This document shows positions 7,247-58,291 of a stretch of 64,000 nt of DNA, one piece after another. Source of the DNA: Eledone cirrhosa (Eukaryota). Positions within the stretch are counted from its first letter, which is position 1, and every line of letters starts with the position of its first letter. The notes beneath the pieces are model-generated. The model worked only from the letters and a program-made list of their open reading frames with translations, ran no database searches and was not told where the DNA came from. The stretch covers positions 9,610,001 through 9,674,000 of the forward strand of contig OZ024743.1 of assembly GCA_964016885.1 (NCBI GenBank), in the 5' to 3' direction. Both the position numbers and the translations under genes were made by a program.

Positions 7247-8493
7247 TGAACTGTTGGTTGCGTTCACGGAGTTGCCAGGTCTTGTTGGCGAGCGTGGTCA
7301 CAAAACGGTGATTAGGATGTTTGATTGAGAATCGATGACGGTACCAGCGAGATTTAAACGAGGTGGTGGTAGATCCGATATAATACCATTTCTGGTCGTT
7401 CGATTCAATCGGTATTATATCGGATCTACCACCACCTCGTTTAAATCTCGCTGGTACCGTCATCGATTCTCAATCAAACATCCTAATCACCGTTTTGTGA
7501 CCACGCTCGCCAACAAGGATATACTTTCCAGCGCAAGTGCATATCGGAGTGGATTGAATACTGCAGGTTATGTAACCTTGAACTCTTTTACATATTAAAA
7601 TCCAAAAACAAACTACTTAACGATAGAATTGAACGATCATTATACTGCAACCACAAACTAAAAGCTAAATTCTCTCACTATAAAATAACTTAACATTCGA
7701 ACCCGTAACTATAACATCGCTTTCTAGCTAACCACCCTCTCTTCCCCCCACACTACAAGACAATACACTGCTTATCACTATAAATGGTAACTCAGTGCAA
7801 TTCACAGATTACTACTACAAACCCAAAGTTCACTCACCACATAAACTTCGTCTGTCCCCTCTCTAACTCTCTCTCTACATCCATTACACTCTCTCTCTCT
7901 CGCCTTTGGCCTACCTCCCTCTCCACATCTATGAACCTGCCCTCTGGGGCAATAAATAATTCCGACCTTAACTATCAACGCATCTCTCCAAAAGTAACCA
8001 GTATAATAAAACCCCTACCACAACATTTTGATTAAGATATCTACAAACCACTCTCTCCTACTTTTCCAACCCCTGCATATCTTTCTCTCTCTCTCCCTCT
8101 CCCCTACTTTTTTTCTCTCTCTTCCTTTCCTACTCTATCTTCCCCAACAACCCCACTTAAGGGTATTTACATTGTACATTTTACCATTCTGCTCTGAGGA
8201 TACAGTGGTCACAGCATTGGATATTTAAGTTCTGCAAATTCTTGTAAATTTGCACATAGCATAACTAGGCTGTAGTACCACCGTGGAAACATTTGTAAGC
8301 ACACGCAATAAATTACCTTTTTATGATGTCTACCTGTTATTATTCATTCTTTATATACACTCCGGAATACAGAAGGATCAGGAACTAAGTTTCTTCAACA
8401 ATTCTTCCATAACTCGTAGAGTAACCTCTCACCGTACGTCAACCATATCCAGTGTAGTAATTAACCATTACTACATCTTGGGTAATCCTATAC

Positions 8494-17661: not shown

Positions 17662-17704
<43 letters not shown>

Positions 17705-18372
17705 AACCAGTAAGACCCCGACAGCTGAGCTCAAGCCGTTTCGACGGCTAATTCTGGACTAAGTGAAAATTTATCCTGGTATTTAAATAGCCGATCTTCT
17801 CAAGGGGTAATTCCATATATGGTCAAAGTGATTGTCAAAAATCAGTAGTAATTCTGTGGTTGCAAATTAGTAGGGGAGATGGTGGCTAAACCTGCCAGTA
17901 GGAGAAAGAGGGGAGGGGGTGGAGTAGACCCAATCAAGCGTTGGTAGTGCCAGCTACAGCTGGGCATGAGGTCAAAGAAGATACAGGGGAGGGGGAGGGG
18001 GAGGAAGTCGGAACGGTAGGTAGAACAATGGGGGGCAGAAATAGGAAAGAAAAAATACTGAGAGTGAAGAAAAGCAAATAAGTGTAAAGAAAAAAGTAAA
18101 GTAAATTAAATTCTACGACCTAGGTGTCAGGCTATTGTTAGGCGAGAATAAAATAAAGAAAGAAAGAAGTAAATAAATAAATAAATAAATAAATAAGGAA
18201 ATAAGTAAAAGAACTAGGTGGGACGGGATAGGCAAGGACCCTTTTAAGAGGTATAAGTACGTAAATGATACGGTGACGGGTCAACAAAAGGGGCCAAAAT
18301 ACTAAAGAGACTACCAAAATACTACAAAAACTCCGTAGCAACCTAACAGAGTATGATAACACAAATGACATC

Positions 18373-20190
18373 ATGGTGCATTCGGATAAAACTGGGAACC
18401 TATACTTTGTCAACCCTGACAGATACCACACACTGATCAAGAACAGCCTAAACTCCACCTATAAAAAGGCCAACCACTCTTGCATCGAGGACATAAATCG
18501 AGATGGACAACAAATCACCTCCAGCCTCGGGGTCGCCGACCGCACGGAACCTCTAGACCCACGGACACCATACTTCACACTGAAGGACCATAAATCCGAT
18601 TTTGACCGTAAACCCTCTATCAGGCTTATTAACCCAACGAAGTCCGACATAGGGAGAATCAGCAAAAAAATCCTAGACCGCGTGATACCAAAAGTCAAGC
18701 AACACACCCGACTTAGCCTATGGATCAACACCCAGGAAGTAATCTCCTGGTTCAGCAATATGGAGGATAAACGAGAAACTAAATTCATACAGTTCGACAT
18801 AGAGAGCTACTATGCTTCAATCACCTTACCGCTACTTACTGCCGCCTTGGACTTCGCCGAAACACTCGTGCCCATCACCGACCAGGAAAGAAAAATCATC
18901 CTCCACGCCAGGAAGACAGTCTTACTCTTTGACAACTCTAAATGGATAAAAAGAGCTCCCGACTCACCCTTCGACGTCAGCATGGGCGCCACGGATTCGG
19001 CGGAGGTCACTGATCTTATAGGATTATTCCTAATAGCCAAACTCACTGATATGTTTCCTGCATTCGGTGGTGGATTGTACCGTGATGATGGGCTCCTTAC
19101 CCTTAAAGGGTACAACCCCAGTAGTACAGATCGGGTCCGGAAACAATTAATCAGATTCTTCCGCGACTGGGGATTTAAAATAACCCTACAAACGTCCCTG
19201 ACCCGAGTAAACTTCCTGGACGTAACCCTCGACCTCGAAAACGACCTGTACTACCCATACAGGAAACCTAATGACAATCTGCACTACATCCACCGCCGAT
19301 CAAACCATCCTAGGAACATCACAAACAACCTGGTCAAAAACATCTCCCTCCGCATATCCCGTTTGTCAGCTAATGAGCGGATATTCGATGAACATGCGCC
19401 TTATTACAACCAGGCCCTCAAGCGGAGTGGTTTCCGGGAGGAAATATCCTACTGTCCAGCTCCCGTTAGCGGAACCAGCAGGAGACACCGCCGCTCACGC
19501 AATGTAACATGGTTCAATCCTCCCCACAACGCAGAGGTGACTACTCCCATCGGGAAACTATTCTTTAGGCTCATTGAAAAACACTTCCCATTACAACACC
19601 GCTACCACAACATAATTAACAAAAATACCATCAAACTCTCTTACAGCACTACACCAAACTTCGCACAAAACATCGTCTCCTCTAACAACAAAAAACTCAA
19701 CCCCGATGGCAGAAATAACCTAAATAGTAGCGGAGAACCGACCAGGAGGTGTAACTGCCCGGATAGATCTATTTGCCCACTCGACAATAGATGCAGAGAC
19801 CGTAATGTGATCTACCAGTGCAACGTGGGGACGGATACCTCCAACAAAGCCTATATAGGACTTACCGCATGTGACTTCAAGACCCGGCTATACCAACATA
19901 GACATACCTTCCGAAACCCGGCCCGGCGTCACGCCACTACACTTTCGGGCCACATATGGGACCTCAAGGACAACAACATCACCTATGATCTCACTTGGAG
20001 ATTACTGTCCAGAGCCAATTCTTACACGGGAGGACGCCGTCCGTGCAATTTATGCTCGGAGGAAACTTTACAAATGCTGTTTTCGACGGACCAACTCCTA
20101 AACAAGAAAGATGAACTGGTTACTGCATGTAAACATAGATTGCGTAGGACTTACCTCGCCCTCAAACCCCATAATGACCCGGGGGGGTAG
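18373..20190 (+). CDS. PLE reverse transcriptase plus C-terminal GIY-YIG endonuclease; frame open back to the inversion junction at ~18320, true N-terminus lost
   Basis: DKTGN, QFDIESYY, MGATDSAEVTDL, YRDDGL, FLDVTLD, WFNPP, CNC..CP...C, VIY...YIGLT...FKTRLYQH; 605 codons without a stop. Confidence 0.92.
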   Translation: MVHSDKTGNLYFVNPDRYHTLIKNSLNSTYKKANHSCIEDINRDGQQITSSLGVADRTEPLDPRTPYFTLKDHKSDFDRKPSIRLINPTKSDIGRISKKILDRVIPKVKQHTRLSLWINTQEVISWFSNMEDKRETKFIQFDIESYYASITLPLLTAALDFAETLVPITDQERKIILHARKTVLLFDNSKWIKRAPDSPFDVSMGATDSAEVTDLIGLFLIAKLTDMFPAFGGGLYRDDGLLTLKGYNPSSTDRVRKQLIRFFRDWGFKITLQTSLTRVNFLDVTLDLENDLYYPYRKPNDNLHYIHRRSNHPRNITNNLVKNISLRISRLSANERIFDEHAPYYNQALKRSGFREEISYCPAPVSGTSRRHRRSRNVTWFNPPHNAEVTTPIGKLFFRLIEKHFPLQHRYHNIINKNTIKLSYSTTPNFAQNIVSSNNKKLNPDGRNNLNSSGEPTRRCNCPDRSICPLDNRCRDRNVIYQCNVGTDTSNKAYIGLTACDFKTRLYQHRHTFRNPARRHATTLSGHIWDLKDNNITYDLTWRLLSRANSYTGGRRPCNLCSEETLQMLFSTDQLLNKKDELVTACKHRLRRTYLALKPHNDPGG

Positions 20191-21293
20191 ACTAGGGCTA
20201 TAACACTCCACTTGCCGATTTTGCAATGGGTAACCCCTGCTTGCCAAGGAAGACGTAAGATCTTCTTTGTATTCTTTTATCGCTTCCTTTATTTCCTTCC
20301 CCCCTCTCTCCTTTGTCCTTCTACCCCAGCTCTTCTTCTTTGTCGGCGTCTTTTCTCGCCCACCCGAGGCTGCCCTTTGGCCCCATGTAGCCTTAGTACC
20401 CCCACCACCCCCTCCCCTAGTCTATGATAGATTTGGCGGACTCCGCCCTTTATAGCAGTTGGCTTAGACCCCGGATACTTGCCCCCTTTTTCCGACCGCT
20501 CCCACTATTCTCTGTGCCCTCTATATTTCTTAGTGGCACTTATGCCTTATTTTTTCGTTTCAGTATTTCTTGCTTCGCTTTTCTTCTGGGCGGGGTGGAT
20601 TCTGAATTTATTTTTCCGTATTCTACCTTTATTTCGTACGAACTTTCATGTAGCTTGTTTTAGATCTTTTAGAGTTAGCATTAGTATTTATTTTTCTCGG
20701 GACTCAGAATTATTATCTCGTACAAGTTCACTTTGCTGCACTGGGTCGTTGCTGGCCCGGGATGGAAACCTTTATTGTTTATTTCTTGGTAGTCTCTTTA
20801 GTATTTTGGCCCCTTTTGTTGACCCGTCACCGTATCATTTACGTACTTATACCTCTTAAAAGGGTCCTTGCCTATCTCGTCCCACCTAGTTCTTTTACTT
20901 ATTTCCTTATTTATTTATTTATTTATTTATTTACTTCTATCCTTCTTTATTTTATTCTCGCCTAACAATAGCCTGAAACCTAGGTCGTAGAATTTAATTT
21001 ACTTTACTTTTTTCTTTACACTTATTTGCTTTTCTTCACTCTCAGTATTTTTTCTTTCCTATTTCTGCCCCCCATTGTTCTACCTACCGTTCCGACTTCC
21101 TCCCCTCCCCCTCCCCTGTATCTTCTTTGACCTCATGCCCAGCTGTAGCTGGCACTACCAACGCTTGATTGGGTCTACTCCACCCCCTCCCCTCTTTCTC
21201 CTACTGGCAGGTTTAGCCACCATCTCCCCTACTAATTTGCAACCACAGAATTACTACTGATTTTTGACAATCACTTTGACCATATATGGAATT

Positions 21294-21387
21294 ACCCCTT
21301 GAGAAGATCGGCTATTTAAATACCAGGATAAATTTTCACTTAGTCCAGAATTAGCCGTCGAAACGGCTTGAGCTCAGCTGTCGGGGT
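21294..21387 (+). ncRNA. Hammerhead-like motif with non-canonical core; mirrored at ~17715-17808 (-)
   Basis: acccc-TTGAGAAGA-tcggcta[...]tagccgtc-GAAAC-ggct-tgagctc-agct-GTC-ggggt. Stems I-III form, but CUGANGA is altered. Confidence 0.55.
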
Positions 21388-21478
21388 CTTACTGGTTCCT
21401 ATTACCCACTCTACTACCTCAAGTATTGAGTACTTTGGTGCGTTATGGTCCACCTGGTTCCTTACCACATTTCCTTCG

Positions 21479-21514
<36 letters not shown>

Positions 21515-23890: not shown

Positions 23891-23902
23891 TATATATATA
23901 TA

Positions 23903-24061
23903 TAACGAAGGAAGTGTGGTAAGGAACCAAGTGGACTATAACGCAGCAGAGTCCACGATATTTAGGGTAGTAGAGTGGGTAATAGGAAAAGAGTCAGGAC
24001 TCCGGCCGTTTCGACAGCTTGATCTGAACTCAGATCTAGCCGCCGGGGTCTTGACTCTTTT

Positions 24062-33542: not shown

Positions 33543-33699
33543 AAAATATTTGACGCCGACGGCAGAGCTCAAGCCGTTTCGATGGCTATTTATGGACGAA
33601 ACGGCATGACATCTGCGTCGGGGTCAAACATTTTCCTATTACCCACTCTACTACCAGTACTCTGGTGCGTTATGGTCCATCTGGTTCCTTACCACACCT

Positions 33700-33794
<95 letters not shown>

Positions 33795-34820: not shown

Positions 34821-35161
34821 TCAAGATTGACCATACGGAATGACCAATTCTATCCAGTGGTGAACCAACAAACCTAAATAAATATATATCGAGCCCTCTT
34901 TGGATTCAACAGCTAGATCTGAACCGATCGAGCTGTTGAAACGGCCAGAGCTCAGCCGTCGGGGTCCTAAATTTTTTACACACCCGCGTGCGCCCCCCCC
35001 CCCCCCCCCCCCCAAACACACAGACATACATACACACGCGCGCGCACGCGCACACACATATATATTCGCTTAAGTTTAGTGATTCACCGCTGGATAGAAC
35101 TGGGCATTCCGTATAATCATTTTGCTCAGAATATATAATATATATGTGTGTGTGTGTGTGT

Positions 35162-38943: not shown

Positions 38944-39493
38944 GGAGGTGAGTTTTATTGTAGTACAATAAAGCAATGCAGATATCGGATAAGAAGCACT
39001 CTACAGTTTGTAGGACTGGAGTATACATAATATATAAGATCAAAAGATGGTTAAATGAGTTCCATATATTTTATTATGCGCATTTCAAAAACAAATATCA
39101 TCATGCAATAACATTTGTGTTTTCATCAGATAAAATGGGAGGACATGATATGAAGGTTAAAAACACTTGTGGATAGTGCAGTTTTAAATCAACATATGAA
39201 AAGTAGTTTTGGATTGATGTGTGACATTGGGGAAAAAAAATTTTCTTAGGGGGGGGGGGGATGAAAAAGAGGATGAGATGAGAGTAAAAAGTGGAGGGGG
39301 AGGAGTATAATGAGGAAGCATGAGATAGGAGGAGAGATGGGTGATAGAGAGAGAGAGATAGCTTTTATAACTGACAAAAATATATTGTTTTACATAGAGA
39401 GGTTGAAAAAACCGTTGGAAGATAATGTATAAATTATAAGAATTTGAAAATTAACGAAGAGAAAAATAATGTAAAGTTAAGGTTTGTATATTG

Positions 39494-45035: not shown

Positions 45036-45422
45036 ATTTCGGAAGAAGGATCAGGATGGAGAGAGAGGTGCTCCACCCCAGTCCTTTTTATGAAAGGTGG
45101 GTGAACGTGGCTAGAATGGCCCGTGTGAATGGGCCTTCTCTTTACATAAGCCTGTAGGTGGAAAAGAGGAAGGAACGAGGGAGTACCCCCTCTCTGTGCT
45201 CCTGAGGAGAAGGGTTGCACACTTATTTCGGGGGTGTGTGCGACCCCCCAAGGCGCTCCTCTCTATTGAGGATTTTGTTATAATTTTATTTTTTGTTATA
45301 TTTTATTTTATTTTTATATATTGTTATTGCCTCCTCCCTATTGAGGACGCCTTGTTTTGTATACTCCTCCCATTGTACTTGTCCCACTTTTGATGCCCTG
45401 GTGGCAAATAAAAGAAACATAT
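45036..45422 (+). mobile_element. Tx1 LINE 3' end only, between (CTAT)n tracts
   Basis: RIRMEREVL...VARMARVNG matches the ORF2 C-termini; aataaa, then (tatc)n. Confidence 0.85.
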
Positions 45423-45443
45423 TTATCTATCTATCTATCTATC

Positions 45444-48400
45444 CGGAACATCTAGATCGTACCTAGATAGGGTTCTAGTTAGAAAGAAGGATAGGGACAT
45501 GTTAAGCTGTCCATAAATGTTCATGGTTGCCTATTCAGATCACAAATTAGTGACCTGTTTAGTCAACCTTGACAAAACCCATAGACAGGGACCCGGCTAC
45601 TGGAAGCTGAACTTGTCGTTACCGACATGCAAAGCCTACAGTAGAGGGATTAGCACTTTAGTTAAGCAGCACTTGACGGGGGCCATTGTCAACAACAGAT
45701 GGTGGTACTCTGTCAAGAGGGCAAATAGATTAGACTCGATAGGTTTTAGTAAAGAATTAGCGTTAGATAGAAATAAGACCGAAAAGGAACTGGTAGATAA
45801 AGTAGAAGAGGCACCTAGGAGTGGCAACGTAGCCAAGGTGCTAGCGACGAGAACGTTCTTCGGCGCAAAGCACGAAGGCTGCGTTGTCAGAAGCAAAATA
45901 CGTGCTCTGGGAAACGAGGGAGCCAAAGCTATTAGCTGGGCCCGAGTGACGGAGGCGAAAAGTGGCAACAAGTCCACGATTCGGTCTTCGAAGAACCAAG
46001 ACGGACGCGTGATACGTAAGCCGAAGCAGATGTGCACGGCCTTTCAGCGGCACTTTGCTCAACCGTTCGGGCAGGGCGGCGCGCCGGGAGGGGCTATGGA
46101 TTTCGGTTCATACCTCGACGGCCTGCCGCGGCTCTCGGACAACGAGGCGAAGTTCTGCGAAAGGCCGATTTCACCCGCTGAGATAGGGGATGCGCTGAGC
46201 CAATGCGGCAAACGCAAATCTCCAGGTCTCGACGGTCTACCCTACGAATATTACGTAACAATGCCGAACTTGTTCTCTGCTCTCCTGGAAGCGGTCTACT
46301 GCAACTGGCAGCAGAACGGGAGAATTCCCAGTTCTGTGACCAAGGGCATGGTCACGCTAGTCAGGAACGACTAGAATAAGGGGGATGATATAGGCAACCT
46401 CCGGCCCATAACTCTGCTAAACAGAGTTACAGATTTTGGCCAAGGCGTTAGCAAAGAGGCTGGCGCTTGTCGTCGAAAACCTGCTGGGAGAAGCGCAGAC
46501 ATGCGCAATCCCGACCAGGTCCATACACGATAACCTCCACCTCATGCGATACATCGTAGAGAGGGTAGGGTATAAACCTGGCTTCGGTGGGGCCCTGATC
46601 AACTTGGATCAGTCTAAGGCTTTCGATAGGGTTGACCATCGTTACCTGGATGCGGTGCTCGAGGCGGCAGGCTTCGGACCCGTGTTCAGGGGCTGGAATG
46701 CCGCAATGCACAACAGCAACATATGCTCAAGGGTCAAAGTGAACGGCTACCCCTCAGAGCCGTTCCATATTACGCGATCCATCCGACAGGGATTCCCTCT
46801 CTCCTCCCTTCTGTACGTACTGTACGTACTGACTCTCGAGCCACTACTGCGGAAGTTGGAGCTATTGCAGGGCATCCTTCTGGAACTGGGACTGCGACGT
46901 GTCAGTAATGCTGTCAGTAATGCTGTCGTGGACCTCGCAAATCGAGGAAGTCGGCACCCTACTGAAGTAATACGAAAGGTTCACAGGAGCGAAGCTGAAC
47001 CGGGACAAGTCCATCGGTTTGTAACTCGGATCGTGGAGAGGCAGACCGATGCCTTCCGATAGCGTCGTCGGACGCTGGACGGAAGGACCGGTGACTGCTC
47101 GGGGTCTGGTTTGGTCCGGACCTCCAGGTGGAGAACTGGAACGAGGTGACGGCCAAGGTGTTTGCACTCACCCAGAAGTGGGCCGAGTGCAAACTATCCT
47201 TGAACGGTCGAGCGGAGGTGGCGAACACTTTTATCGTCTTTTTAGGTCCATCGTCTACTACCGCTTGACCGTCGTGCCATGTCCAGCAAAAACGCTCACC
47301 AAAACGGAGGGCGTGCTCTTCCAATTCCTTTGGAAGAAGCGGGCTTCTTTGGTGAGAAGATCCATCTGCTGCCAACACCCTTCGAACGGAGGGCTGGGGA
47401 TGCCGTGGCTGATGATGCGCAAACCCGCGCTTAGGCTGCGGTACCTCCACGTATTCCTTACTGGACAACCGGTGTGGGCCCCGTTCGTGAGGCGAGCCTT
47501 GCCACGACTCGTCTCGCTGACCGAGCTGCAGTCCTGGGTCAAGCAAAGACCGAGGAAAATGGGCGACTGGCACATCGAATGTGCTCAGGCGCTCACAGTC
47601 CTCTGGCAGGCGGACCCGGCGATCAGTGGAGACTCCACTCCCTCATTCTATAGAGGGTTGGTCCGCAGCAAGTGCGACGACGCGTCAGAGAAACTCTAGG
47701 CGTAGAGGAAGACGAACTGACCAGTCTGTTCGGTAGGACCTTCCTCCCAGGACCAATGGACAACTTCCAAAAGTCCCTGGCCTGGAAGTGCTACCGAGGA
47801 GCTCTACCAGTTCGAGACAAGCTCTACAGACACGGGCGCCCGAGCAGGGACCCCTCAAAAAAGATCTGTCCGAGATGCGTGCGAGACGAAGAAACCGTCG
47901 CGCACGCATTCGTACACTGCCCGGGTGTTACCGACCTGTGGGGCTATGTAAAACGACTATTGTCACGGGTGGGACCAATCCGGTAGACCACCGAGTCCAT
48001 CGTCATGATCAAACCGCCACCCTCCTTCAAAAACGAAGGAGAGGCGGTTTTCCTTTGTGTGATAGCTATGGTGAAAGAGGTTGTATGGTGGACGAGGTTG
48101 AAATGGCTGAGGTCAGACACCTTTCTCTCCGGCCAACAACTGATTCTTCATTTCAAATACCACTTTAGAAGAAGAGTGAGGATGGAGAGAGAGGTGCTCT
48201 ACCCCAGCAAGTTTTGTGAAAGGTGGGTGAAGGTGGCGAGAATGGCCCGAGTGAATGGGTCTTCTCTTTATATCAGCCTGTAGGTTGAGCAAAAAGAGGG
48301 GAAAGGGGTACTCACTCTTCGTACTCCTGGAGATTAGGGTTGCACATTTTTTCGGGGGTATGTGTTACCCATATGTAATGTCTCCCCCTTTTGGGGAAAA

Positions 48401-48879: not shown

Positions 48880-49700
48880 AGTCACTAATATCCCTAAACG
48901 CTTCTTCTCTATCCTATCTAATCATTACCCCCACCCCCACCCCACCCCACCCCCACCCAACCATAGATATTACAAACTCTTTAAGAAAAATAACATTAAA
49001 ATTTCATTCTCCACAACACCTAAGCTAGCTAGCCACATCGCATTCAGTAACCATCATAAAGTAAGATAGTATAACTCCCACACCGCGGTACCACCACCAC
49101 CCTCAAATACACCACGCCACCACACCAATACTTACTCTAGTAGCATACCTCCACCATCTAATCCTTCTAGTACGCACCAAACGCATAGTTTAAACAACCC
49201 TACTCTCACTAACCGCAGCAGTAACTTCAACTGCCGTTACCCTGATGCATGCCCACTAAACGGACAATGCCTTACACCCAATATAGTTTATAGGTGCACA
49301 GTTAAAACAGCATCGCATACCAACTCCTATATTGGCTCTACCTCTAAGCCCTTTAAGGTACGCTATAACGCGCACTCTTTTTCCTTCCGAGACCCTAGCA
49401 ATAGATGTTCGACATCTCTACCTAGGCTCATTAAAAACCTAAATTAACCAACATTGAACACTCACTAACATATCTTGGCTAGGGCCCAACCGTTCAATGG
49501 ACGAAGAAACTCTTGTGATCTCTGTCTTACCGAAGCCTATTACATAACTCTATCACGACCTCTACCGATTAATGATAGAACGGAGGTAACTATTAGCTGT
49601 CAACATCGAAGGCCTAATTCCTTCGTCAACAGAATATTACCACTTTTGCTTAGAGCTAATAAGTTAAATAGTTATAGCTAACTTAGATAATTATAAGTTA
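48880..49700 (+). mobile_element. Decayed Naiad-like PLE 3' part (linker and GIY-YIG)
   Basis: HRYYKLF...IKISFSTTP; NCRYPDACPLNGQC...IVYRC...SYIGSTSKPFKVRY; CDLCLTE. Confidence 0.8.
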
Positions 49701-50065: not shown

Positions 50066-50252
50066 AATTGTTTCTACTTTAGGCACAAGGCCAGCAATTA
50101 CCCAGTGCATTACTGGTACTTTATTTTATCGACCCCGTAAGGATGAAAGGCAAAGTCAACCTCGGCGGGATTTGAACTCAGATCGTAAAGGGACGTAACT
50201 ATGCTGGAAAGCATGGCGTCCGACCCTCTACCGATACTGCTAATCCACCGCC
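50066..50252 (-). mobile_element. tRNA-derived SINE (short variant), 18-bp TSD
   Basis: TSD ctgaaacagatcaataat at 50051-50068 / 50252-50269. Confidence 0.9.
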
Positions 50253-50682
50253 TGAAACAGATCAATAATGATCTATAATCATTTGATCCAGAAACATTAT
50301 ATGGAGTAGCGAAACAATTGTAAACGGACATTATTAGTATTATTATTATTGTTCTTTACATTCCTTACATTAAACTAAAACTATGTTGACAATCTTTTAA
50401 TAATGTCTTCCTTGTGAAATGTGTGGTCTTGTTTTGCTTAACTAATGAATATATATACATTATATATATATATAACAAGAAAAGTGTGGTAAGGAACCAG
50501 GTGGACCATAACCCACCAGAGTACTCGATACTTAGGATAGTAGAGGGGGTAATAGGAAAAGAGTCAGGGCCCGACGCCTGAGCTCCGGCCGTTTAGTTCG
50601 GTTTAGTACAGATCTAGCTGTCGAAACGGCCGGAGCTCAGCCGTTAGGGTGCTGACTCTTTTTCTATATTATATTATATATA

Positions 50683-52306
50683 TAAAAACAAATAACGAAA
50701 CGAAATTAAATTTCGTTTCGTTTGTAACTCACTTTTGTATGACTGACGCTCAAACAATTAAGTCAAAGATGTACATCCATATATGTATACTGAAATACTA
50801 GTATGTATATGAATACACACACGTATACATATGTAGATGTACCAAGTTTTTTTCACTGATCACTTTACTGTGAGTGGCCAGCTATTCTGTATGTAAACAC
50901 ACAGACAAACCGGTTTTTAGAGTCATACTGGTTTTTGAGGAAACACCTTTCCTCTATTCTCCAGAAAGCCAGACAAGGAACATTGAACTAGTTTCGTTGT
51001 TGTTACAACTCATCAGCAATATTTACCTATCTTCCGGCCTCTCTAGAGAATCGTAAAAGCACATATCGCTATATGCTTTTTCTATGAAAATTAGTAGTGG
51101 GCAGACCAACTTGCATAGAGTGTGAGTAAGTACCGGTTCAACGGAGACGATAAAAACAAATAACGAAACGAAATTAAATTTCGTTTCGTTTGTAACTCAC
51201 TTTTGTATGACTGACGCTCAAACAATTAAGTCAAAGATGTACATCCATATATGTATACTGAAATACTAGTATGTATATGAATACACACACGTATACATAT
51301 GTAGATGTACCAAGTTTTTTTCACTGATCACTTTACTGTGAGTGGCCAGCTATTCTGTATGTAAACACACAGACAAACCGGTTTTTAGAGTCATACTGGT
51401 TTTTGAGGAAACACCTTTCCTCTATTCTCCAGAAAGCCAGACAAGGAACATTGAACTAGTTTCGTTGTTGTTACAACTCATCAGCAATATTTACCTATCT
51501 TCCGGCCTCTCTAGAGAATCGTAAAAGCACATATCGCTATATGCTTTTTCTATGAAAATTAGTAGTGGGCAGACCAACTTGCATAGAGTGTGAGTAAGTA
51601 CCGGTTCAACGGAGACGATAAAAACAAATAACGAAACGAAATTAAATTTCGTTTCCTCAAAAACCAGTATGACTCTAAAAACCGGTTTGTCTGTGTGTTT
51701 ACATACAGAATAGCTGGCCACTCACAGTAAAGTGATCAGTGAAAAAAACTTGGTACATCTACATATGTATACGTGTGTGTATTCATATACATACTAGTAT
51801 TTCAGTATACATATATGGATGTACATCTTTGACTTAATTGTTTGAGCGTCAGTCATACAAAAGTGAGTTACAAACGAAACGAAATTTAATTTCGTTTCGT
51901 TATTTGTTTTTATCGTCTCCGTTGAACCGGTACTTACTCACACTCTATGCAAGTTGGTCTGCCCACTACTAATTTTCATAGAAAAAGCATATAGCGATAT
52001 GTGCTTTTACGATTCTCTAGAGAGGCCGGAAGATAGGTAAATATTGCTGATGAGTTGTAACAACAACGAAACTAGTTCAATGTTCCTTGTCTGGCTTTCT
52101 GGAGAATAGAGGAAAGGTGTTTCCTCAAAAACCAGTATGACTCTAAAAACCGGTTTGTCTGTGTGTTTACATACAGAATAGCTGGCCACTCACAGTAAAG
52201 TGATCAGTGAAAAAAACTTGGTACATCTACATATGTATACGTGTGTGTATTCATATACATACTAGTATTTCAGTATACATATATGGATGTACATCTTTGA
52301 CTTAAT

Positions 52307-52307
<1 letters not shown>
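50683..52307. mobile_element. Retrozyme-like array: ~2.1 tandem 468-bp units, then ~1.4 inverted units, in (TA)n
   Basis: Units start at about 50683, 51151 and 51619; inversion at ~51655; copies look identical; one hammerhead per unit; no real ORF. Confidence 0.85.
50980..51022 (-). ncRNA. Minimal type I hammerhead; identical copies at 51448-51490 (-) and 52041-52083 (+)
   Basis: atattg-CTGATGA-gttg-taacaa-caac-GAAAC-ta-GTT-caatgt; stem II gttg/caac, palindromic stem III (aactagtt). Confidence 0.85.
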
Positions 52308-52379
<72 letters not shown>

Positions 52380-52524
52380 AAAAAGTATGACCCCATACGT
52401 TTACCTATTACCCACTCTACTATCCTAAGTATTGAGTACTCTGGTGCGTTATGACCCATCTACTTCCTTACCACAACTCCTTCGTTATATATATATAAAT
52501 ATATAAATATATAAATATATATAC

Positions 52525-52602
<78 letters not shown>

Positions 52603-52646
52603 AAGTTAAATAAAAGTCAAATGATTAAAATTTAGCTTCGTTTATT

Positions 52647-52701
52647 ACTGCTATATATATTTCAGTGACAGCCATCTTTGGCTGTGACCTCTTCAGGCAG
52701 T
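52647..52701 (-). ncRNA. Type I hammerhead in the pLTR; copies at 56772-56826 (-) and 57172-57226 (+)
   Basis: actgc-CTGAAGA-ggtc-acagcc-aaagat-ggctgt-cact-GAAA-tatat-ATA-gcagt. Confidence 0.82.
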
Positions 52702-53892
52702 TTGAATTAGTATGGTATAGACAAGTACATATGTTGTTTAGGTGTATGATATTGTCAATACTCTGATATGCCCAGTTCCTTGTTGGGTTGTTAATTCACT
52801 GGGGAACTGGAGTCATATGAATTCAAACAAACGAATTTTAGTGTCACAGGTCCCCTTCTCCTCTCATTGGTCAGTTATTAGTGTTGTCATTGTTGGAGTT
52901 AGCTTAAAAATTGATAAAATGGTAGAAGGGACAAGGTGTTGAAGGAACAAAATATCAAAAAATGTGTCAAACTTCCCATTGTTCAGTTCTGAGAGCATTC
53001 CTCAGTCAGAAGTCTATAGAATTCTTTCTGGGGTGAGGCTCCCTGTAGTGTTTATGCCTGCTATTGTTCAGTACATTTGACCTCCACCATTATTTTGGTA
53101 CTGTTGTTGTTGTAGTGGTCAGCTTATATCTTGCTGCTGCTAACAATTTAGAAGTATTCAGTTTGTGTTTTCTCTTCATCCCACCCGCCACCATCGTAGT
53201 GGTGGTGGCGGGGGGGGGGGGTTATTTCATGTATATGAAGAAATATAAGGCAATAAATGAAGAAAACAGAAGATAAATAAATAATATAATAAAATAAAAT
53301 AATTAATATAATTTGTGTAATTTGAAAATAAATAAATAAATAGAGAATAAAGAATAAAGAGTAAATGAGAGATTGGTGAAAAAGTAATGATAATGTATAT
53401 GGAGAAGTGAGAAATAATGTAGGATAAAGTGTGTGTGTGTGTGTGCTATAACCAATCTCAAGGTCAGAATATGTTGGATAGATTGGTATGATACAAGATG
53501 TTAAGATGAGATATTCAATGTGTTTGTGTTATAATCTATCTCAACTTAAAATAAATATAAATATAAGGTTATACAGTGAAGAGGGCAGAAAACAAATAAC
53601 AAATTAATATAGAGAAATCAAGATTTAAGATTGGAACTTTAAAGTCAGAAATCTGGAAAATTAAAAGTGTTGTGTTATAGATGTTGGCCAGATTATTATG
53701 GCTGTGTCCGATTCTGTCTCTAGGCTATCATGGTGTCTGCTCCGCCTGGGTTGTTCCCTATGGCTTGAGGGGAGTTCACAACCTAGGGTGTTGTAATTGT
53801 CCATATAGCTTGAGGGAGGTCTGGCCGTGAGGTGTTTTCATGTTCTGTAGAAGTCCCTATAGCTTGAGGGGAGTTCACATCTTCTTGTGTTG

Positions 53893-56569
53893 CTACTGTC
53901 CATATATTTTGAGAAAGGTCCCGGCTCTAAGGTGTCTGCATGTCCCGAAGAAGTCGGTTCTGAGGTTTATCAGGCCGCTTCCACCTCTTAGTATCTCGAG
54001 GGTCTCGTTCAGGCATAGTTTGCATATGCAAGATCCCCCTTTATCGGGTGGTACTTTCCTGATTATGTACCAGGCCAGAGAGTATGGGGTCCTGTCCAGC
54101 TTAAGCTTCCAGATCAGGTCGGAGAGAGCTGTGCTTTTCCTTTTGGCCTCCTTCTTGAATGAATGGCGATGGTTGTACCAGCGGTCCTTAAAGCTCGTTG
54201 ATGTGGCTCCTATGTAGAGGTGTTCGGAGTTGGGGGTTTTAACCCTACAACCGTACACTATGTTCTTCTTGAGACATTCCTTACCAAGGGGGCATGATTC
54301 GGGGTTTCTACAGTTGCAGAGGGTGGGCGGCCTCTGCGTGCTTAGATTAGGGTTCTCATTATGTGTTACATGTTGGTCTTCCCCCATGCTCGGTGGGGGG
54401 TCCTTGGATCTGTTTGTGTTTCTTGGGTGGGCTCTGGGTCCCCCCTTCCCTCCTTTCACATGGTTCTGCTGAGTGTTTGTATTGCCATCTTCTGGTTGTG
54501 TGTGGTTTTTAAGCCTACTTCTGTTGATGCTAGCTATGTGTTGGGCCAAATTTCTCGTGGTGGAATACGAAAGCTTCACAGTGTGTCTGTTGAAGATCCT
54601 GTGGTATCTGTGGTCCCTCGGGAAGCATTTGTCAAGTGCTCCAAAGAACAATCGGGCCAAGCTTTTCTTTAGGGCCGCTGAGTAGGGTGGGTTGTACCAC
54701 GTGATTTGTCGGTGTCTCCTCCTATATGTGTGGGTTGGGGGCTTCGTGATTTATTGGAGATTTGTTGGTTTGCTGGTGGTTTCCGCACTGTTGCTTCCCT
54801 TTTGGGCTCTATACTTTCTGTTATCTTCACGGCCCGGATTTGTGGGGTGGTTGTTGTCTGCCCCGGAAGATCCATCGTGGGGTGGTCGCCCGTTTCCTCC
54901 CCCCCCCCCACGTGTCCTGCGGTTGGGGTTGTCCGTCCTGGGGTAGTTAGCATCACGCCTGAGACTGCTACTCATATTGTGCTCCATCTTGTGGTCAAGC
55001 GCACTAGTCCCCACCGCCCGTGTGGTGGTGTCTGGTACATGGTGCCTATTTTGCTCTGCCTGTATTGTTAGGGTTCGCCCTCTCCCCTCTGGTAACGCGG
55101 TTGTGGGTGTCTGTTGGGCTATCCACCTCCCGGCTTTTCGGACTATATGTTATATTTTGTCCATGTGCCGCCTTCTTTAGAGCTGCGTTGTAATATTCCG
55201 CGTGGTTGTTGAATATTTCCTTACTTGCGGACAGGCTGGAGATCCTGTCCGAGACACTCTTCACCACTGCCTTGGTTATGGATCTAGGGTGGTTTGATTT
55301 GGCGTTAACATATACTAGTTTCTCGTTGGGCTTGTGGTAGGGGTAGTATTGCTCGGTGTTCAGGTTTAGGGTGGTGTCTAGGAAGTTAACTACCTTCCTA
55401 TTTGGGTCTATTTCTATGCTGAGCCCCTGGTTCTTAAAGAAATGGCGAATACGCCTCCTCATACCCTCCAACATATTGGTGCTGTGGTCATGTACTGTGA
55501 ATAGAGCATCGTCACGATATAATCCGCCGCCCAGGCAGGGGATTTCATCTTTTATCTGCTTCAGCAGGTAGAGCCCGACCAGGTCCGTTACCTGCGCTGA
55601 GTCGCTGGAGCCCATCGTGATGTCAAAGTTATTTGGCCAATCACTCCTGGTCCACAGGTCTCCATCGAAGCGGATTAAGGTCTTTCTTGCGGCGTGGATG
55701 ATGCTCACCTCCTCTCGGGTTAGGTCCGTATTGGACATCGCTAAAAATAGGGCCTTATTAAGTACTATGGGTGAGATTGAGGAGTAGTAGCTTGCGATGT
55801 CCAGTTGTATAAAGCTGGTCCTACTTTTCTCCTGCAGTATTTTGAACCATTCTATTACTTCTCTCGTGCATGACCATTGCTGTAATTTGGTTTTTTTCCG
55901 AAGCTTGGGCAAAATCCTATCCAGTATTCTTTTACTGACGATCCCTAGGTCAGATCTGGAGGGGGCTATTAGTCTGACAGGGAGGTCGGACTCAAAGTTT
56001 GACTTGTGGTCTTTAAGGGTAATCCGCGGCTTCCTTGGTTGGTATGGGGCCGTCCTGTCCTCTATGCCGATTCTGGATATAATCCTGTAAGCTGTGGCAT
56101 TGATCTCATCCAGGGTAAATCCAGGTGTTTTTTTGTAGCACTTCCTCAGTTCCCTGAGGATTAGCTTATTGTACAGTTCAGTGTTCATGTTGTAGAGGTT
56201 GTTTGTTTTGTCAGCATGGACAAGTATTCCAGTTGTCCCTTTAAGTACTGTAATCCGGTTTCTCAGGTGTCTGAGGTACTCCTGACTTCTGGTTGGGTTT
56301 CCGGAGAATTTGAGGTTGGATATGATGTTAATCATCTCGTTTTCAAACTCCTCCATTAGTCTGTTATGGGGGGGATTCCTCCTTGATCGAAAAAGGTACT
56401 CCATGTTTTCTGTGTTTGTAGTTTTCTGCGTTCCTCTTTCGAAGTGGAACGCCTTCCATCTCATCCTACGGATGAGGGAGTCCGTACTCTTGATGAGATC
56501 ACTGGTGTATTCTCGTTTATCAGGTAGGGGGATGTCCTTCAGTGACGCTAAGGTTGCCAGTTTATCCAT
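53893..56569 (-). pseudogene. PLE RT plus GIY-YIG endonuclease, with one frameshift (~55050) and one TAA (54751) in the linker
   Basis: SLKDIP...RMRWKA, ADKTNN, QLDIASYY, MGSSDSAQVTDL, YRDDAL, FLDTTL, WYNPPY, CNC...CP, IVY...YIGATSTSFKDRWYNH, CKLC. Confidence 0.92.
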
Positions 56570-57372
56570 AGTGACTTAGGTCCGCTACTGTTTGAAGCGC
56601 TCAACCCGTGTGGGAGCTAGATAGATTTTGAGTTTATGTTGGTTGTATACCAACACCTCAGTATGCAGGCTGGAGCACTCGACGAAGTGCGCAGGTTGGT
56701 TTGGTTACTCCGGAGTAGTGTAAAATAAAGTTAAATAAAAGTCAAATGATTAAAATTTAGCTTCGTTTATTACTGCTATATATATTTCAGTGACAGCCAT
56801 CTTTGGCTGTGACCTCTTCAGGCAGTTTGAATTAGTATGGTATAGACAAGTACATATGTTGTTTAGGTGTATGATATTGTCAATACTCTGATATGCCCAG
56901 TTCCTTGTTGGGTTGTTAATTCACTGGGGAACTGGAGTCATATGAATTCAAACAAACGAATTTTAGTGTCACAGGTCCCCTTCTCCTCTCATTGGTCAGT
57001 TATTAGTGTTGTCATGTGGGGACCTGTGACACTAAAATTCGTTTGTTTGAATTCATATGACTCCAGTTCCCCAGTGAATTAACAACCCAACAAGGAACTG
57101 GGCATATCAGAGTATTGACAATATCATACACCTAAACAACATATGTACTTGTCTATACCATACTAATTCAAACTGCCTGAAGAGGTCACATCCAAAGATG
57201 GCTGTCACTGAAATATATATAGCAGTAATAAACGAAGCTAAATTTTAATCATTTGACTTTTATTTAACTTTATTTTACACTACTCCGGAGTAACCAAACC
57301 AACCTGCGCACTTCGTCGAGTGCTCCAGCCTGCATACTGAGGTGTTGGTATACAACCAACATAAACTAAAAA

Positions 57373-57411
<39 letters not shown>

Positions 57412-57417
57412 GTTTAC

Positions 57418-58291
57418 ATATACATAAACATAAAGTCATAGATATATACGTTGCAACCGGTCACGTTGTAGCTCTATGAAGAATTAATAAATTAAATAAT
57501 CAGAGCAATATATCATAAATCATGTCCTTAGAATTATTAGATAAAATATATACCATGTCCTCTCCCAATTAACCATATAAAAAATCAATTAGACCAAGCT
57601 ATAAGAATAAAGGCTCTTATGAAGAAATTTCCGACAAATAACCGAAAGCGGCCTCTTCGCGGTGGCCCCAATAGAGTATTTAACCAACATTTCGACAGCG
57701 TGTAGACATTGACTAAATATACCATCAACCATACACAATTAGGTGCAAATTCAAACTTAGATGAAATGTGTACATACCGTAATTATATCTCTTCCATGGT
57801 TTCATCCGTATTTTTAGACATCCAACTAATAGGATATGTCTGGAGTATCGGATTCATCAGGAGACAAACTCAAAATTAGACATTTAGTTTTCCAAAGTGA
57901 TCGCGCCAAAAATAGATTTTAAAATGGCTAAGAATCGTGACGTGGCAGTGGTCAAGTTAGAAAGAATGTGATTAGTTGCTTACGGCTGGTAGGCTTGTTG
58001 CTAGAAAGCGCAGCCAAATATACATAAACATAAAGTCATAGATATATATATGTTGCAACCGGTCACGTTGTAGCTCTATGAAGAATTAATAAATTAAATA
58101 ATCAGAGCAATATATCATAAATCATGTCCTTAGAATTATTATTTGTCGGTTATTTGTCGGAAATTTCTTCATAAGAGCCTTTATTCTTATAGCTTGGTCT
58201 AATTGATTTTTTTATATGGTTAATTATGCTAATTGGGAGAGGAAATGGTATATATTTTATCTAATAATTCTAAGGACATGATTTATGATAT
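57418..58291 (-). mobile_element. Retrozyme-like ~600-bp family, subfamily 2: 1.2 tandem units plus an inverted arm
   Basis: 57418-57540 repeats at 58018-58141 (period 600). 58146-58291 mirrors ~57508-57645. Hammerhead at 57787-57865 (-) has its cleavage triplet changed to GAA. Confidence 0.8.

Follow-up and report, generated by a model that had tools for sequence, protein, structure and literature searches.

A two-armed array of a non-coding 468-bp unit in the 64,000-nt stretch of Eledone cirrhosa DNA analysed here (the window) is best read as a recent insertion of a non-LTR retrozyme, likely copied into (TA)n by a reverse transcriptase (RT)-endonuclease of a Penelope-like element (PLE) from one, probably circular, RNA of 468 nt. 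We put the probability of this reading at about 0.72. The array is one copy of a young, dispersed, ORF-free subfamily inside a larger hammerhead clan; it is a known kind of element, and the mechanistic record that it has left is unusually clean. The family yields sharp rules, namely a single start site on each target strand, a single template haplotype in each insertion and edits written into DNA. It thereby bears directly on the open mechanism of PLEs and retrozymes, and the clan takes up a measurable share of the genome. The origin of tandem and inverted PLE insertions, and the use of circles as templates, are stated to be open in the available text of three earlier accounts (PMC8557442, PMC11167929, PMC7229834).

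We hypothesize that insertion begins with transcription of a tandem array, in which adjacent minimal hammerheads would pair via the palindrome of stem III and release monomers that a host ligase would close into circles. The substitution spectrum suggests that this highly paired RNA is sometimes A-to-I edited. Judging from the anatomy of the insertions, both target strands would then be nicked about 12-14 bp apart, presumably by the PLE enzyme, one 3' end priming at position ~304 of the unit and the other at ~230. Each RT may go round the same monomer up to 14 times or more with no stop at the cut site, and the two cDNAs would be joined head to head via 0-5 nt of microhomology, as seen at the turns, while failure of one cDNA would leave a one-armed copy. 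Some older arrays appear to grow afterwards by unequal exchange, as is seen at locus L150.

The array and its hammerhead

Unit positions are counted from the first base past the predicted hammerhead cut. The two arms (Table 1) lie head to head, with both 3' ends facing outward, and are flanked by (TA)34 on the right and by imperfect TA on the left. TRF gives a period of 468 with 100% matches, and all five cut-to-cut pieces equal the reference unit with no difference; the array carries the variant 5A>G, which turns a pair in stem I of the plus-strand hammerhead into U-G. Arm mapping, TRF and the identity of the pieces thus bear out the layout described in the initial annotation, which had seen about 2.1 identical head-to-tail units of 468 bp, a strand switch and about 1.4 more. 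Its claim that the unit lacks coding capacity holds as well, the longest stop-free frame having 60 codons and the longest ATG frame 20.

Table 1. Features of the array and of the neighbouring element (window coordinates)
Feature	Position	Strand	Details
Left arm	50682..51655	- (hammerhead strand)	974 nt, 2.08 units, running from unit position 267 (5' end) to 304 (3' end, site 2); two cuts crossed; repeat mapping
Right arm	51651..52307	+ (hammerhead strand)	657 nt, 1.40 units, running from unit position 42 (5' end) to 230 (3' end, site 1); one cut crossed; repeat mapping
Turn between arms	51651..51655		5-nt microhomology GTTTC common to both arms
'Tail' (positions 231-304)	50682..50755	-	74 nt, left end only; site 2 is closely preceded by a strong hairpin
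Candidate target-site duplication, left copy	50672..50684	+	13 nt, TA-rich and hence not unique
Candidate target-site duplication, right copy	52307..52319	+	continues into (TA)34
Type I hammerhead (stem I to stem I)	52041..52083	+	core 52047-52077; predicted cut after 52077 (GUU)
Type I hammerhead	51448..51490	-	core 51484-51454; predicted cut after 51454
Type I hammerhead	50980..51022	-	core 51016-50986; predicted cut after 50986
Penelope-like element	52596..57374	-	Hydra-clade motifs; tail-out like the array, with two end sites and a hammerhead of its own

The three cores have a stem I of 6-7 bp, a stem II of 5 bp, a stem III formed by the palindrome ACUAGU and the triplet GUU, in agreement, at the level of the motif, with the single minimal hammerhead with palindromic stem III that had been noted in each unit. 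Set against the metazoan non-LTR retrozymes in the available text of PMC7229834, the hammerhead of the unit is a minimal one with a palindromic stem III of 2 bp; dimeric cleavage by such palindromic minimal hammerheads is covered in the accessible part of the review PMC6765202. Rfam at gathering thresholds gives no match anywhere in the window, and the isolated 55-nt motif folds no better than shuffles (z -0.5). Its identity as a hammerhead is supported by the invariant core, by covariation between subfamilies and by the genome-wide count of a pattern covering all subfamilies, which has 38,688 exact matches against 0 for the reversed control. Between subfamilies, 6/13 pairs are altered on both sides against at most 1 in slid controls, in a set of 7 sequences from about 4 lineages in which most of the double changes fall on one branch. 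The predicted fold of the sense circle has a z of -9.2 (antisense -4.1), and a hairpin is predicted shortly before each of the end sites at 230 and 304. The exact double-hammerhead fold is not counted here, as a co-folded pair of hammerhead segments gave a duplex via the palindrome instead.

Two fixed outer ends

The outer ends of the arms lie at two fixed sites 74 nt apart, one site per arm, which is the signature of the Penelope 'tail'. This emerges from 67 subfamily-A arrays, comprising that of the window, 27 from the listed matches to the unit, 12 from the first matches to a subfamily-A 31-mer and 27 chosen for an end at 230, in which only the other arm is informative. Of the two-armed arrays, 50/51 (L276 being the exception) have one arm that ends near 230 and one that ends near 304, and each site falls equally on the left and the right (25:25); a separate tiny insertion in L249 is left out of this tally and two right ends were set from additional locus sequence. 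The one-armed arrays number 16, with an end at 230 in 11 and at 304 in 5; judged by eye, three of them have a very short second arm belonging to the other site, and one is incompletely covered. Of the 21 subfamily-B arrays, 14 are two-armed and 13 of these obey the same rule (exception L136), so that 63/65 two-armed insertions of the two subfamilies have one arm per site, and none of the 65 uses the same site twice. The subfamily-D loci with both ends visible are consistent with the rule. In the two exceptions, L136:4585-5323 and L276:8470-9119, a short inverted arm ends at neither site. Chance microhomology with (TA)n is ruled out as the source of the outer ends by a control position with a native ATAT, at which 1 forward-strand end enters TA genome-wide, compared with 1,040 at site 2; the counts used are those of the forward strand, as overlapping matches inflate the reverse-strand ones. 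The initial annotation had taken the different end points of the arms to mean that the unit is circularly permuted; that step fails, as the differing outer ends reflect the two-start-site tail rule and carry no information on circularity.

The targets and turns are equally regular. A TA-rich flank is found in 43/47 arrays, three non-TA targets (L037, L140 and L145) have clear target-site duplications of 12-14 nt, and the head-to-head turn has 0-5 nt of microhomology in 43/51 two-armed arrays and short insertions in the other 8. L1 twin priming likewise joins two primed cDNAs head to head by microhomology, with a second primer site that varies and adjoins the end of the first cDNA; in the present family, by contrast, neither site varies and both arms can be longer than the unit. 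The one-arm-per-site rule, the TA-end control and the two end sites of the neighbouring autonomous element all point to a PLE-type enzyme, and it is very probable that such an enzyme and an RNA intermediate were at work.

An experimental parallel is the Anolis element Poseidon PAc, for which the available text of Frangieh et al. 2024 (PMC11167929) describes, in vitro, two internal RT start sites that bound the tail, and nicking and extension of both target strands at AT-rich targets, as proposed here. PAc is autonomous, with a tail of 30-40 nt, whereas the present family is non-coding and has a tail of 74 nt; moreover, the start sites of PAc showed no strand difference in vitro, while the present insertions use one site per strand. 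Hydra-clade PLEs and MRC1-type Chlamys elements, as far as the accessible sections of Craig et al. 2021 (PMC8557442) describe them, share (TA)n targeting, hammerheads, an inverted 5'-truncated arm and a tail that is often present at one end only, and the MRC1-type elements also form multicopy head-to-tail insertions. The inverted 5'-truncated arm and one-end tail of PLE-mobilised sequences are what the 63/65 two-armed insertions display. However, the unit has neither an ORF nor detectable homology to the Hydra terminal repeats inspected, and the same sections describe Chlamys elements as lacking canonical hammerheads, which the unit has.

Template haplotypes and A>G changes

The inner ends of the arms are uniform round the unit (n=117, KS p=0.22), with 3 within 10 nt of the cut compared with 5 expected, and the cut-site junctions are clean and scar-free in 413/413 scored cases, L253 and L152 being left unscored. 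The uniform inner ends, the lack of a pile-up at the cut and the clean junctions suggest that the RT met no free end there. With the poly-A at 132-140 and once-covered positions dropped, the 67 arrays hold 38 substitutions that are fixed in every covering unit of an array (at least two units), 34 of them present in both arms, together with 51 single-unit and 22 partial variants, 15 of the latter from L261. Since a new change begins in one unit and yet is fixed in all 14-16 covering units at L246 and L053, a monomer bottleneck is indicated. A monomer circle is the simplest such bottleneck and, as judged from genomic sequence, the probable template. The rolling reverse transcription proposed in the initial annotation is thus supported by both-arm haplotypes, uniform inner ends and clean junctions, and not by the arm ends.

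The direction of the changes also speaks for RNA. On the sense (hammerhead) strand A>G makes up 22/38 array-fixed changes but 5/51 single-unit changes (Fisher p=1.4e-6). When distinct sites are counted the figure is 14/29 (p=2e-4), and without L278 it falls to 7/22 (p=0.035), a weak excess. L278 has an identical set of seven A>G changes in both arms, all within the 29 nt of positions 252-280 over the tail hairpin. At positions 5 and 343 A>G recurs on several backgrounds, and by branch it accounts for 5/10 changes toward subfamily A and for 2/9 and 6/44 on two others. RT reads inosine as G, and ADAR acts on paired RNA, where its edits are clustered. A shortage of 5' G neighbours at the A>G sites is in the expected direction and not significant (p=0.07). 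We regard the A>G pattern as good evidence for an RNA intermediate, and in this sequence comparison ADAR is quite probably the cause of the excess.

The strongest alternative, which we consider unlikely, keeps the same PLE twin priming and replaces the circle with a linear multimer that was transcribed from an array homogeneous beforehand and left uncut, with the hammerhead idle at insertion. Clean junctions and uniform inner ends are equally expected from such a template, a homogeneous source array with a linear transcript would also give homogeneous daughters, and the pattern in L278 can arise if two RTs copy the same overlapping part of a linear trimer. As a triplet, GUU is weaker than GUC. 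In the available text of PMC11167929, mutation of the hammerhead leaves insertion of the anole PLE normal in vitro and uncut RNA serves as the main substrate, such that hammerhead activity is dispensable there, and 1/9 Xenopus retrozyme dimers was cleaved in vitro according to the accessible part of Li, Clavereau, Pollet 2026 (10.64898/2026.07.22.740005). These points count against the circle. On the other hand, fixation in 14-16 units requires the monomer bottleneck, which at least 14 distinct A>G sites have passed; no position-specific variants are repeated between loci among the 67 arrays; and the hammerhead has been kept by compensatory changes.

Quite improbable, in our view, is that a short PLE terminal fragment was inserted and then grew locally like a minisatellite by unequal crossing-over and gene conversion, a model discussed in the available text of 10.64898/2026.07.22.740005, which favours local amplification of arrays, whereas the present data favour arrays formed at insertion. 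Such exchange does occur: L150 has the repeated, mosaic variants typical of unequal exchange, L033 and L056 have period-2 variants, and mosaic variants in these three loci and in L256 reflect exchange after insertion. Local growth does not, however, account for variants common to both inverted arms, for 10-14-unit arrays without single-unit differences (L031, and nearly L036), or for the 96/126 arm segments that exceed one unit, the youngest copies included; likewise, exchange between DNA copies would not be expected to produce an A>G bias tied to one strand. Together with these four loci, L261 runs counter to a single template for every array. In L261:5044-9172 one arm opens with 5 units of another haplotype (15 differences) and switches to the A haplotype within the tail hairpin region, which indicates either two templates or a template switch, or else a later or nested event.

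Returning to the circular template, we lean slightly toward a stronger version of it, in which each insertion would derive from one RNA circle tagged by its own A-to-I edits and copied by a dimeric PLE enzyme, such that the genome would hold a molecule-by-molecule record. A dimeric enzyme of this kind would start once at each of the two fixed sites and roll in both directions. If this is true, editing would be a main source of heritable variation for the element, and the tandem, inverted and tail features of PLEs generally would follow from the same rule. The 468-nt RNA and an intact Hydra-type ORF from one genome would form a small in vitro system. Of four runs compared with the unit and with the neighbouring PLE, two of unspecified kind each contain one closed contig of about 500 nt; these are set aside as evidence for circles, since a tandem array yields the same contig and the small cover of PLE ends in one run fits trace genomic DNA. 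A public run from another organism contains a very deep set of related contigs with ends joined to TA at position 304.

Family, relatives and neighbouring elements

In the 3.0 Gb genome searched, the unit matches at least 278 places (29/529 candidates scored), and the diagnostic 31-mer of subfamily A is present 670 times, so that the young, multi-locus, non-coding hammerhead repeat anticipated in the initial annotation is indeed dispersed and not confined to a single locus. From 38 forward-strand ends at position 230 that run into TA, subfamily A is reckoned to occupy ~75 or more loci. Subfamily B (469 nt, 88% identical to A) has a GUC triplet and is itself young, a C-type subfamily is 93-96% identical to the A unit, and subfamily D, of about 418 nt, is colinear with it, with 292/476 columns identical and a score of 194 compared with -56 +/- 12 for shuffles. 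If each of the 38,688 hammerhead matches stands for 450 bp, the clan is estimated at ~17 Mb of the genome. Several copies differ in length or internal sequence: C1:345596000-345607000 (L252-L253) has a 23-unit arm of subfamily A, C1:5738324-5752446 has a single arm with ~31 tandem units from a further subfamily, the internal poly-A (position 132-140) has lengthened into long runs in some units of L256:1546-8905, and an internal (TA)n grows inside the units of another subfamily at L239-L242.

By sequence the unit has every feature that the available text of PMC7229834 gives for non-LTR retrozymes. It is a short, dispersed, multicopy tandem repeat with one type I hammerhead per complete unit and with duplications of more than 4 bp (12-14 nt), and units join units directly in 88 arrays, as expected of an element that has neither coding capacity nor an LTR/PBS/PPT body. 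The metazoan retrozymes described there are likewise non-coding tandem repeats with units a few hundred bp long and low GC, a single type I hammerhead in each unit, copy numbers in the thousands, duplications of more than 4 bp and a stable predicted circle. The unit is 468 nt compared with 150-450 for those elements, and circles are demonstrated for them, whereas the present family is known from DNA. The two-armed layout, the fixed end sites and the editing marks are absent from that text, in which the words 'inverted', 'octopus' and 'rolling' do not occur. Animal retrozymes are argued to be non-autonomous PLE derivatives in the accessible part of 10.64898/2026.07.22.740005, which treats the same class, proposes the same PLE dependence and gives unit sizes of 51-972 bp; it samples no mollusc and does not use the word 'tail', and its Xenopus families match known PLE terminal repeats, while none matching the present unit was found in the PLE loci searched. 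In the open-licence literature we found no description of the family, of the one-site-per-arm rule or of editing marks in retrozymes, and a repeat-library entry may exist.

There is very little likelihood that the unit is merely the terminal repeat of an RT-coding PLE, seen in 5'-truncated copies. Its anatomy is that of PLE ends, and the hammerhead matches inspected are a fraction of the 38,688. However, units join units directly through many turns, the RT + GIY-YIG ORF of autonomous PLEs is absent from the array, and the Hydra ORFs beside arrays belong to separate insertions with terminal repeats of their own, none homologous to the unit. That the unit always occurs as the pLTR of an RT-coding element, a possibility raised at the outset, is not what is found: 0/88 arrays (67 of subfamily A and 21 of subfamily B) run on into an ORF. 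An assembly artefact of a repeat adjoining (TA)n, which perfect identity and an inverted turn next to a microsatellite might suggest, is highly improbable, given the layout common to the 67 subfamily-A arrays and, at dozens of loci, differing inner break points, locus-specific haplotypes and target-site duplications.

The neighbouring element at 52596-57374, separate from the array, is a candidate for the type of helper and is not homologous to the unit. It has direct and inverted terminal repeats, end sites at +56 and about +152-156, hammerheads at 52696 and 56821 (-) and 57177 (+), and an ORF (53893-56569) broken by a frameshift near 55050. It is not recognised by Pfam and is assigned to Hydra by motifs, on the basis of section 11 of PMC8557442: RWK, DKT, a CxCx5C linker and GIY-YIG at the C terminus (motifs in the intact copy L074), with the hammerhead and the (TA)n target. 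Intact frames of 890-894 codons of the same family occur elsewhere in the genome at 95-99% identity, and the family is young. Several Hydra-type families are present in the genome. Naiads likewise favour (TA)n. No terminal repeat homologous to the unit was found in the neighbouring element, in 30 loci of its family or in 30 loci of a second Hydra-type family; against the terminal repeat of the neighbouring family, the best similarity of the unit falls short of significance (E 0.53), and an 18/22 match near the hairpin was dismissed at that value. The TA-rich flanks of the arrays, the (TA)n targeting and hammerheads of Hydra elements in the available sections of PMC8557442 and the intact Hydra-type frames suggest a helper from the Hydra clade, which we favour on this sequence evidence with some reserve.

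The window holds further repeats of these kinds. A second Hydra-type element (about 17700-21485, ORF pieces 18298-20163), 44% identical to the first family, has an inverted arm that stops at one site and a 3' repeat that stops at the other. Small two-armed insertions of its family's terminal repeat flank the array at 50464-50672 and 52378-52491, and further pieces lie at 23899-23988, 33552-33702 and 34931-34969; an inverted-repeat element of the MITE kind enclosing the array was rejected, as both pieces match the terminal repeat of this other Hydra-type family. Decayed Hydra-type endonuclease fragments lie at 48968-49627, from an older family with at least 150 matches, and at 7266-7409. Hammerhead-like motifs with palindromic stem III also occur at 39129 (-), 34466 (-) and 14973 (-), the type at 39129 being found upstream of a Hydra ORF in L237. 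A repeat with a period of about 610 bp (57410-58100) directly follows the (TA)n of the PLE and has a hammerhead-like stretch near 57640-57670 (-). A decayed LINE-like element at 45042-48288, with an RVT_1 match at 46421-47059, is flanked by a 121-nt direct repeat at 87%, and upstream of the array, at 50100-50260, lies a repeat that we take to resemble a SINE.
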